Of a DNA stretch of 48,388 nucleotides, positions 1,043 through 27,443 are shown piece by piece. The number at the start of each line of letters is the position of its first letter. Within the stretch, counting starts at the first letter, position 1. This DNA comes from an uncultured Candidatus Saccharibacteria bacterium. GTDB taxonomy: Bacteria > Patescibacteriota > Saccharimonadia > Saccharimonadales > JAGQNJ01. Below the pieces are notes generated by a model, which was given only the letters and a program-made list of their open reading frames with translations, was not told the DNA's origin and searched no databases. Location: the NCBI GenBank assembly GCA_964577565.1, contig CAZNZL010000004.1, positions 1-48,388 of the forward strand, in the 5' to 3' direction. Made by a program: the position numbers and the translations under genes.

Positions 1043-1228
1043 TGGTCGGGGTTACAGGACTCAGTCACCTTCGGCGGCCCCGTCGCAACATCCTTCAAAA
1101 CAAGTTTTGAGGAGTTGACTCCCTTGCGAATAGCCACAGGCTATTCTCACCTCTGACCTCTGCGCGGTCACAGTCATAGGCTTGTATCTCACCAATTCAA
1201 AAGCCCGCTTTAATGCGGGCCCTTGAAT
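1043..1228. repeat. tRNA-Pro-linked structured repeat with duplicated tRNA 3' end
   Basis: 1043-1062 identical to 1229-1248; internal hairpins incl. GAATAGCC-ACA-GGCTATTC. Confidence 0.85.
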
Positions 1229-1305
1229 TGGTCGGGGTTACAGGACTCGAACCTGTGACCTCGCGGTCCCAAACCGCGCGCGCTAGCCAACTGCGCCAAA
1301 CCCCG
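1229..1305 (-). tRNA. tRNA-Pro (TGG)
   Basis: Cloverleaf CGGGGTT...CGCGG-TTTGGGA-CCGCG...GGTTCGAGTCC...ACCA with encoded CCA. Confidence 0.97.
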
Positions 1306-25703: not shown

Positions 25704-26300
25704 TTAATTTTTGTTACCACGGTGGAGTGACAATAGGCCAAGGTAAATATGACTCTTGCCATCATTGGTGATTCTTACGGTAAGGTCATCTCGACCCCAT
25801 CCGGTAAAGTACCCAGTACAGTACTGTCCATATTTACCCCAGCGCTCAACACCAAACGAGTCACTTCTATGTACTCTATCACCCGAAAAAGATATTCCTT
25901 TATCTTGGATGATTGCAATTTTCATTTTTCCTGAAGCTGCCTGGTTAGATACTCGCCCAGTAACGCAGGCATAATATTTCTGATCCTTTGTTATACCACC
26001 GGCTTTCCAACGAACACTATCTCCGCCATTGAGACGAGCGACATATTGACCTTGTTTACCGTTGATATTTTTACTCTCGGGTACTGGTACCACTGGATTA
26101 CCCAGCTCATGTACTGCTTTAAACTTGACTGTTGTCGCTGCCGCGCTTTTATATGTAAAATATCCGGCACCTAAAAGTGCAATAAATAAAATCGAAATTA
26201 AAAAACGCACTCGAGGGGATTTGAAATTAATGTTTTTTGAAACCAAAAAACCCTTGTTAGTTGAACTTTTTTTATGTTTGGTTTTGCTTTTTATGGCCAT
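25704..26300 (-). CDS. Hypothetical membrane-anchored/secreted protein
   Basis: Basic N-terminus, TM, beta-rich domain with Cys pair. Confidence 0.7.
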   Translation of the reverse strand: MAIKSKTKHKKSSTNKGFLVSKNINFKSPRVRFLISILFIALLGAGYFTYKSAAATTVKFKAVHELGNPVVPVPESKNINGKQGQYVARLNGGDSVRWKAGGITKDQKYYACVTGRVSNQAASGKMKIAIIQDKGISFSGDRVHRSDSFGVERWGKYGQYCTGYFTGWGRDDLTVRITNDGKSHIYLGLLSLHRGNKN

Positions 26301-26446: not shown

Positions 26447-26770
26447 TTATTTATTGCTAGTTAGTTTGCGGTATTCCCGGTAAAAGTCTTCTCTGTCCGC
26501 CTCGTCTAATACTCCTTCTAGTGTATGTCTGTCAATGTCTTTAGTGGGCGAACCAAAGCGGATACCGACTGCATCTACCAATGCAGCGACTTGCGAGTCA
26601 GAAAGCACGTCTAATAGTTCTTGGAAATGTTTCATTTCTTCCGGACCCGCATTGCCGCAGAAAGCATTTGGGCTATGAAATTTGGAGTGCGGTTCACTTG
26701 GAGTAGAAAATATCTCTTTAGCCGTTTTACCAAAGATTTTCTTCACTAGATCATTATTATTTTTTACCAT
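26447..26770 (-). CDS. Hypothetical protein
   Basis: 107-aa ORF downstream of tRNA-Lys repeat. Confidence 0.6.
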   Translation of the reverse strand: MVKNNNDLVKKIFGKTAKEIFSTPSEPHSKFHSPNAFCGNAGPEEMKHFQELLDVLSDSQVAALVDAVGIRFGSPTKDIDRHTLEGVLDEADREDFYREYRKLTSNK

Positions 26771-26852
26771 GATTATATTGTAACCCCAATAAACAAGCCG
26801 TGAAGCGACCTAAGTTCATATTTTCTTATTAGGGTCATCTGTAGGATCAAAT

Positions 26853-27050
26853 TGGAGGGCCCGTCTAGGGACTCGCCCACATTCTGCGGGCCCAGAACTT
26901 CTACCTTGCCAGCATAGCTGCCAGGTGAAGATTCTCTTGCAGAATGCCACAGGCATTCTTCACCCATGACACCCGAGGAGTGTCCTGTGTTCGCAATCTC
27001 AACGAGTCTTTCCAATGAAAAAGCCCGACATTGCTGTCGGGTCTTTTCAT
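26853..27050. repeat. tRNA-Lys-linked structured repeat with duplicated tRNA 3' end
   Basis: TGGAGGGCCC..GGGACTCG copy at 26853-26875; hairpin AGAATGCC-ACA-GGCATTCT shared with tRNA-Pro element. Confidence 0.82.
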
Positions 27051-27127
27051 TGGAGGGCCCACTGGGACTCGAACCCAGGACACCCTGCTTAAAAGGCAGG
27101 TGCTCTAACCGGCTGAGCTATGGGCCC
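27051..27127 (-). tRNA. tRNA-Lys (TTT)
   Basis: GGGCCCA...CCTGC-CTTTTAA-GCAGG...GGTTCGAGTCC...TCCA. Confidence 0.97.
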
Positions 27128-27130
27128 TCG

Positions 27131-27276
27131 TCAGAACCGACGGTCGCCTTCTGCGAAAGTTTATAAACTAACTTTCGTTTCACGCTCTAGTCGCTTCTTC
27201 CTCTCAGTTTTTTATCCAGTCGAGTCGGCCGTAGCCGCTCCTTGGGATAAAAAACTGGGTTAAAGAAACAATCTGA
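27131..27276. repeat. Palindromic element in tRNA-Lys leader
   Basis: CGAAAGTT/AACTTTCG and CAGTTTTTTATCC/GGATAAAAAACTG stems; TCAGA...TCTGA ends. Confidence 0.6.
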
Positions 27277-27443
27277 TTGAAGTGTGACGTACTTACACTA
27301 ATTAACCCGTTTTTGCGGTCATTTTTTAAGAATGCTTTTTCCGAATTTATGACGAGGAAATATTACAGTTAAACAAGGGTATATTATCTCTGAAAATGTA
27401 AAAAAGTCAATATGGTTATTTTAAATATGCTATCATAAGCAGT

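Follow-up and report, generated by a model that had tools for sequence, protein, structure and literature searches.

An 87-nt structured core interrupts a copy of the 3' end of the tRNA-Lys(TTT) gene in the genome analysed here, and we consider it reasonably probable that this core is gene-less mobile DNA that folds as a single strand and is moved by an enzyme encoded elsewhere, with higher confidence in its mobility than in the chemistry by which it moves. The window examined was the whole 48,388-nt contig C4 of an 863-kb Candidatus Saccharibacteria genome, hereafter G000. If this reading holds, the core would stand for a family of tiny non-coding mobile elements present across the order, which delete two target bases and show neither inverted repeats nor target duplications, and the family would account for the mirror duplications at many Saccharibacteria tRNA genes. 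We found no description of the element in the literature searched, which lay largely outside subscription journals.

Organization of the Lys and Pro Units

Read on the tRNA strand, the Lys locus runs from the tRNA through a terminator, an inverted copy, a left arm and the core to a right arm ending in CCA. The intact target gene, tRNA-Lys(TTT), lies at 27051..27127 on the minus strand (ARAGORN; Rfam RF00005) and is followed by a bidirectional terminator-like hairpin (27015..27050), whose stem pairs down to the tRNA CCA and then TGG, and which was assigned to the unit from this base pairing and from its absence at the empty site of the congeneric genome G001. Next to it is a decayed inverted copy of the tRNA 3' half (26977..27014, plus strand), recognized by sequence comparison and position profile and containing the acceptor strand, the T-loop including the two bases replaced by the core, and the 5' strand of the T-stem. 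The left arm (26963..26974, minus strand) is a sense copy of the 12 nt preceding the T-loop with one mismatch, its last base being the G directly before the core, and the right arm (26853..26875, minus strand) repeats the tRNA 3' end in sense, running from C56 to CCA and carrying three edits. Between them the core (26876..26962, minus strand; 87 nt) stands in for T54-T55 of the tRNA copy; it was delimited by CM R1 (94.3 bits), covariation and junction mapping, and consists of three hairpins, H1 (26938-26962), H2 (26894-26935) and H3 (26876-26893), on the same strand.

The second unit of the window belongs to tRNA-Pro(TGG), the intact gene of which occupies 1229..1305 (minus strand), and comprises a terminator-like hairpin paired to CCA (1195..1228), a decayed inverted copy of the tRNA-Pro 3' half (1166..1194, plus strand), a left arm (1150..1160, minus strand), an 86-nt core (1064..1149, minus strand; CM R1 91.7 bits) and a right arm (1043..1063, minus strand) that copies the tRNA-Pro 3' end exactly over 20 nt, the first base being changed from C to T. 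Every module that the original prediction had named at tRNA-Lys was found in its place between 26853 and 27127, including the hairpin at 27015-27050, which begins 5 nt ahead of the AAAGCCCG quoted as its start, and the module order proposed to be common to both loci is identical in the Pro unit (1043-1228). The shared core pattern given there has two exact matches in the 863-kb genome and none when reversed. A compensatory indel in the stem had also been proposed; since H1 is equally long at Lys and Pro in alignment A1 (see below), the difference is a compensatory substitution and not an indel.

The Lys unit is predicted to fold with z = -5.2 as RNA and -7.0 as DNA, with none of 200 shuffles as good, and the Pro unit as RNA (z = -4.2) likewise folds far better than shuffles. 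An independently assembled contig of sequencing run X1, which may be the source sample, covers 26873-27078 without a difference. The architecture also recurs in hundreds of further records, and both observations make an assembly artefact unlikely. A search with Rfam 15 over 26700-27300 found only the tRNA above a gathering score, and no family for the core.

The Core Family and Its Distribution

Alignment A1, comprising 81 of 95 distinct standard-length cores, showed changes on both sides in 25 of the 34 predicted pairs, and 95.8% of cells pair, a level reached by none of 500 shuffles and compared with 25-42% in slid controls. Core length across the family is 86-89 nt, and the fold is a five-way junction with 2-nt linkers. 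Orthologous Pro-GGG units in genomes G000, G001 and G028 preserve H1 through compensatory changes, which is more than would be expected of a dead scar and counts against that reading.

Model R1 detects eight copies in G000, six of which are linked to Lys-TTT, Pro-TGG, Pro-GGG, Val-TAC, fMet and Gln-CTG, the remaining ones being at a tRNA-Arg fragment split across the ends of contigs C7 and C1 and at a non-tRNA hairpin. Across the genomes searched, 43 of 61 (G000 included) contain matches, with 0-16 copies per genome; the 61 include one genome (G002) with no core, no Y1 gene and one long-frame GIY-YIG match. A phylum-wide sample gave matches in 2 of 151 genomes, both from the order of G000 (Saccharimonadales), and 66 of the 80 matches listed from the genome collection carry Saccharibacteria, Saccharimonadales or Saccharimonas in their titles. 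The other listed matches include Patescibacteria bins, one 'Parcubacteria' bin with two loci and one short contig of a 'Calothrix' bin. Two search patterns gave no match in viral contigs, nor was the core matched in phage and plasmid records. A related organism in runs X1 and X2 carries a Lys unit with a variant core.

Association With tRNA Genes in Two Layouts

For a survey of position we examined, after removal of duplicates, 274 cores; many copies of the core lie at contig ends. Of the 213 cores flanked on each side by 300 nt or more, 174 are within 400 nt of an ARAGORN tRNA, compared with about 4% of G000 so placed, and this disposes of the generic dispersed repeat that had been named as the refuting case. 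The 192 tRNA-adjacent cores, representing 34 anticodon types, are oriented in the tRNA sense in 189 cases and antisense in three.

Two layouts were observed. In 103 cases the unit stands after the tRNA, in the order terminator, inverted copy, short left arm, core and long right arm; in 89 it stands before the tRNA, with a long left arm that often carries upstream flank too, followed by the core, a short right arm, an immediate fold-back and a spacer. Both are circular permutations of one molecule, namely arm-core-arm plus its inverted complement. A terminator stem paired to its base with an exact TGG occurs in 43 of 59 downstream units versus 4 of 85 unit-free tRNAs. The right arm matches the tRNA at 90-97% over the first 9 nt from the core and at 61-76% beyond 12 nt, and the left arm at 76-100% over 9 nt, so that the arms are best preserved beside the core, and the inverted copy is the most decayed part, its acceptor-stem portion matching at 20-59% in the position profile.

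Two Target Bases Are Replaced at the Junction

Arms were mapped for 129 cores having a standard H3 and an adjacent tRNA, with gaps of 0-5 allowed. In agreement with the original proposal that one process makes units at different tRNA genes with arms following the local tRNA, 112 of the 129 mapped to their own tRNA and 17 remained unmapped, while about 14% of control trials mapped to a tRNA of another amino acid. Exactly two target bases are missing at 109 of the 112 mapped sites and three bases at the other three. The lost pairs (n = 109) are TT (53), GT (41), CG (9), GA (3), AG (2) and GG (1), and only one of them is identical to the core end. The base before the core is G in 271 of 274 cores, and the base after the gap is C or T in 107 of 109. 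Of the triplets before the core, GGG (149), AGG (70), GAG (28) and GTG (11) were the main ones among the 274, with others besides, and only the G at position -1 is fixed.

Of the 109 two-base sites, 94 fall into three T-loop registers; among those mapped there are also sites in the D-loop, at the D-stem end, in the anticodon loop and on the tRNA-Phe antisense strand. On inspection, insertions in the variable loop of tRNA-Val and in the non-tRNA hairpin obey the two-base rule too. The T-loop is hence one of several types of site, and the 94 T-loop sites could descend from a few founders.

Evidence for Mobility

In 9 of 11 pairs of closely spaced H1 matches, one core was nested in the H3 of another core, the other two being false pairs. 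All nine nested cores are free of duplication or mirror, and the outer H3 appears to be short by two bases as read from its pairing strand, no empty site having been seen. Since insertions thus occur without duplication or mirror, the mirror is not the primary event, contrary to what had been suggested for tRNA-Lys. A single spare tRNA copy can also carry two cores. At locus L273 (9600-9800), a full-length tRNA-Lys copy with perfect flanks is interrupted by a core identical to that of the unit 3.5 kb upstream, and an intact tRNA-Lys gene lies 3.5 kb away.

Empty sites were found in related genomes. The tRNA-Lys(TTT) gene of congeneric G001 is identical to that of G000 and has no unit, the terminator hairpin being likewise absent, and its flank resembles the flank found after the unit elsewhere; empty orthologous sites are also present in G008 and G018. 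From the best matches listed, 77 cores were extracted, 72 of which had a known target (14 genomes), and for 47 of these 72 the nearest core sits at a different tRNA of a different genome. Mean core identity stays at about 0.69-0.70 for pairs with and without a common genome or target, and permutations reached the observed genome effect in 44 of 1000 and the target effect in 247 of 1000 trials. No excised or empty form was seen in assembled contigs over both units, in which rare variants are dropped.

A conserved non-coding region ending in a hairpin (L192, 1100-1500) is a repeated non-tRNA target of the core, seen also at loci L006, L056, L126 and L150, and gave no Rfam match.

The Folded Strand

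Among the core pairs, G-T (144) outnumbers A-C (24), indicating that the folded strand is the core-sense strand. The loops provide a clue as to whether this strand folds as DNA: in 67 of 81 cores the H3 loop is a GNA triloop closed by a covarying pair, and H2 has a loop of 2-3 nt closed by C-G; the H1 loop was set by the search pattern and so was left out of the loop counts. According to one report, GNA mini-hairpins are far more stable in DNA than in RNA and are found in single-stranded DNA priming and promoter signals (PMC13037366). The antisense insertions in tRNA-Phe and the non-tRNA hairpin also favour a DNA target. Since fold z-scores hardly separate RNA from DNA (-4.2 vs. -5.4), we infer from loops and targets that the core likely folds as single-stranded DNA.

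Neighbouring Modules and Cargo

Abutting the 5' end of tRNA-Lys is a separate repeated module of about 130 nt from another family (27128..27259, minus strand), identified by motif search. Its motif occurs nine times in G000, in eight cases immediately ahead of a tRNA gene or a 5' tRNA fragment, and it is absent at the Lys locus of G001. Two ORFs after the Lys unit (window 26447-26770 and 25704-26300) had no Pfam match, and they may be acquired cargo, given this result and the different gene that follows tRNA-Lys in G001.

A second core family was noted after the T-loop GGTTCG, with a terminator-mirror-arm layout, at Val, Phe, Asn (three copies), Arg and Ser-GCT; in G000 it lies on contig C1 at 346390-346240, 344450-344290, 114540-114215, 103720-103565 and 466330-466170, and on C2 at 115826-115655. 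Two near-identical Asn units of this family border cargo blocks of 9-11 kb.

The junction between CCA and terminator is the entry point of serine-recombinase islands and other cargo, which have a short repeat of their own and displace units; they share loci with the units and do not explain the core. The serine recombinase genes of G000 are located at C1 350222-351814, C1 121825-123300 and C2 120788-119121, and all three frames end in or cross the antisense strand of tRNA genes. A tRNA-Asn (C1 123286-123617) and a CAT-anticodon tRNA (C2 15493-16175) carry anticodon-loop inserts of 257 and 607 nt that look like group I introns. The units supply spare tRNA ends where cargo islands accumulate, and in this way they may shape gene gain in reduced genomes.

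Search for a Mobilizing Enzyme

No enzyme gene was found in cis: there is no ORF within the unit and no recurrent mobile ORF beside the 274 cores, ORF clustering around 150 and then 274 cores returned syntenic neighbours only, and recombinase genes, none of them recurrent, adjoin just a handful of the 274. No long gene-bearing version of the core occurred among the matches listed of the 274 H1 matches. In G000 there was no match to a Y1 transposase, RVT_1 (PF00078), the IS110 domains (PF01548, PF02371) or Prim-Pol, and its recombinases consist of one XerC/D-like protein and the three large serine recombinases of independent islands. Model R1 gave two weak matches on 46 nuclease or recombinase loci, neither flanking the gene, and cores did not co-occur with Y1 across genomes (12/15 vs. 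31/46, p 0.52).

The small GIY-YIG nuclease is our preferred candidate, a tentative choice. G000 has three such genes, one of which has the intact tRNA-Asn gene on one side and, on the other, a partly mirrored 5' copy of it interrupted by a hairpin. Relatives carry similar GIY-YIG elements at the 5' ends of other tRNAs, within RNase P RNA genes and at tmRNA. PMC2761285 describes 2-nt 3' overhangs for GIY-YIG enzymes, which would fit the 2-nt loss if a presumed cut of this kind precedes it. Moreover, a mini-hairpin linked to GIY-YIG genes makes up the H2 tip of one core. On the other hand, cores and small GIY-YIG genes co-occur weakly (22/26 vs. 21/35 genomes, Fisher p 0.049, the genomes not being independent), a small GIY-YIG gene is near the core at just 2 of 274 loci, both upstream of the tRNA and neither inside the unit, the core-rich genomes G021, G028, G016 and G057 have none, and GIY-YIG-linked inserts replace 0-10 nt and not two. 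The exact G|NN|Y junction rule makes the search for the enzyme testable.

Small GIY-YIG genes between a hairpin-interrupted 5' tRNA fragment and an intact tRNA were also seen at loci L035 (1450-1850), L155-L159, L176, L182 and L183, some of the reading frames terminating inside the tRNA 5' end, and by eye, L168 and L172 have such genes with inverted-repeat flanks inside apparent RNase P RNA genes.

Proposed Mechanism and Alternative Explanations

For a core moved in trans, a nuclease encoded elsewhere would make staggered cuts 2 nt apart at G|NN|Y, with loss of the bases between them, and the folded core would be joined in. If dispensable DNA is hit, such as another core or a spare tRNA copy, the event would end there; if an essential single-copy tRNA gene is hit, survival would be possible only where repair retains an intact copy, and a fold-back, hairpin-capped intermediate would give rise to the inverted piece and the direct repeat of one arm. 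Duplication and mirror likely enable an essential tRNA gene to withstand a hit, and the two layouts would correspond to the same molecule entered through its 3' or its 5' arm. Whole units, terminator included, would then likely spread between strains via recombination in the tRNA arm. At some loci the terminator is a duplicate of a host one, at others it is new, suggesting that both primary and transferred units exist.

Alternatively, the whole folded unit might be active in a self-guided form of homing, in which the arms, as a two-part guide rewritten at each insertion, pair with the target strand, or with the inverted copy, so that the core is looped out opposite two unpaired bases as a scaffold for a nuclease or recombinase. 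The preservation of the arms beside the core, the reuse of few sites across 34 anticodon types, the fixed geometry with H1 about 73-97 nt after the tRNA, and the five-way junction with 2-nt linkers are consistent with this possibility, which we nevertheless regard as unlikely: insertions into cores and spare copies lack a mirror, the left hairpin is just 3-4 bp in several Ser units, some units match another tRNA allele instead of that of their neighbour (G008 Lys-CTT, L023, L255), truncation alone could explain the arm profile, and no partner protein was found. Quite unlikely, too, is a self-reprogramming version guided by DNA, in which the folded single strand would take arms derived from the last target as its two-part guide, the looped-out 87-nt scaffold would recruit a small GIY-YIG-type nuclease cutting two bases opposite the junction, and fold-back synthesis would rewrite the guide at each insertion. 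If arms do steer insertion, this would be a new programmable insertion system.

A benefit to the host in cis, with read-through RNA folding on the pre-tRNA, as the original prediction had envisaged, or mimicking the T-arm and so tuning processing, modification or decay, appears improbable to us. It would suit the sense orientation of 189 of the 192 tRNA-adjacent cores, the retained pairing (95.8% of cells) and the stable RNA fold, but the presence of the unit is patchy, with empty orthologous sites in G001, G008 and G018, decay is greatest in the acceptor-stem portion of the inverted copy (20-59% match), a terminator stands between tRNA and unit, antisense, nested and non-tRNA insertions exist, and the loops are DNA-like and not GNRA or UNCG tetraloops.

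Highly improbable is the reading of the unit as an attachment-site remnant, that is, an attP arm left at the end of an integrase-driven island after loss of its cargo. The direct repeat from T-loop to CCA, the frequent position of units at the borders of cargo blocks, and the three large serine recombinase genes of G000 that read into antisense tRNA genes can be cited in its favour. However, cargo enters at the CCA-terminator junction with a separate repeat of 6-12 nt, displacing the unit, and recombinase genes stand beside so few of the 274 cores. At an integrase crossover the overlap bases are retained or duplicated, whereas a deletion of two is not produced; D-loop, anticodon, antisense and nested sites would also be left unexplained.

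An H/ACA-like guide for T-loop modification was rejected, because the arms are mostly sense and the sites vary, as was a group II/III mini-intron (a GUGAG...AC look-alike), removal of which cannot restore the exon and which shows no conserved domain V triad.

Comparison With Known Systems

We compared the mobile core, as proposed above, with known classes of elements (PMC10690162, PMC3733652, PMC4383910). Like IS200/IS605 derivatives and the REP/REPIN-RAYT system, it is gene-less, has a hairpin at each end and no terminal inverted repeats (H1 starts at the left junction and H3 finishes at the right), leaves no target duplication at the junction, probably has a single-stranded DNA substrate, and forms inverted doublets with local amplification. 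It differs from IS200/IS605 in removing two target bases, excision of IS605 being described as scarless in PMC10690162, and in a target that keeps only a G and a pyrimidine and not a motif of 4-5 nt. REP sequences are, according to PMC3733652, palindromes of 20-40 nt with a GTAG or CGTC tag, whereas the core has 86-89 nt, three hairpins and no conserved GTAG/CGTC tag in A1. In addition, G000 has no cognate Y1 (HUH) gene and the Y1 loci gave no core match. RAYT-like Y1 genes of Saccharibacteria were observed at loci L195-L205, flanked by short palindromic repeats of their own that are unrelated to the core.

Unlike a MITE, the core has ends (TGAG and GTGAC/GTAGG) that are not complementary, each pairing within its own hairpin, and it makes no target-site duplication, two bases being lost in 109 of 112 cases and no duplication arising in nested insertions. 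With tRNA islands of the Islander type and tycheposons, the unit shares an intact tRNA and a displaced terminal fragment, a boundary at the T-loop, and arrays and cargo blocks at tRNA genes; it is distinguished by the lack of an integrase, the fixed structured core inside the displaced copy, the inverted copy, the 5' and 3' layouts, the 2-nt loss and the antisense and nested sites. Nor does the core resemble tRNA introns (group I, group II/III or archaeal BHB), since its removal leaves the tRNA copy 2 nt short and it is also inserted antisense, and it differs from IS110 with its bridge RNA, where donor and target share a conserved core dinucleotide: G000 has no IS110 domains, and the dinucleotide at the target sites is variable and removed.

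Tandem inversion duplications and inverted triplications formed by template switching consist of three partial copies, the middle one inverted, joined at hairpins. The unit is similar in that the middle of its three copies is inverted and decays, yet it is tied to a defined insertion, measures 100-200 bp only and occupies fixed recurrent sites. With GIY-YIG homing elements the core has in common its targets in conserved RNA genes, its 2-nt loss would fit their 2-nt cut geometry, and small GIY-YIG genes lie at tRNA, tmRNA and RNase P RNA genes of the same genomes; in contrast to those elements it is non-coding and not an intron, and its co-occurrence with them is weak. Single-stranded DNA initiation signals (the phage G4 origin, ssiA) and N4 hairpin promoters are, like the core, compact multi-hairpin DNA, and such signals carry GNA mini-hairpin loops including CCGAAGG, as stated in PMC13037366. 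The core differs in being chromosomal, multicopy and targeted to tRNA genes, and G000 has no Prim-Pol; the likeness seen is one of structure. On these comparisons, the core as we model it behaves like a non-autonomous element of the IS200/IS605 or REP kind, yet lacks features that define these, and likewise departs from MITEs, islands and introns.
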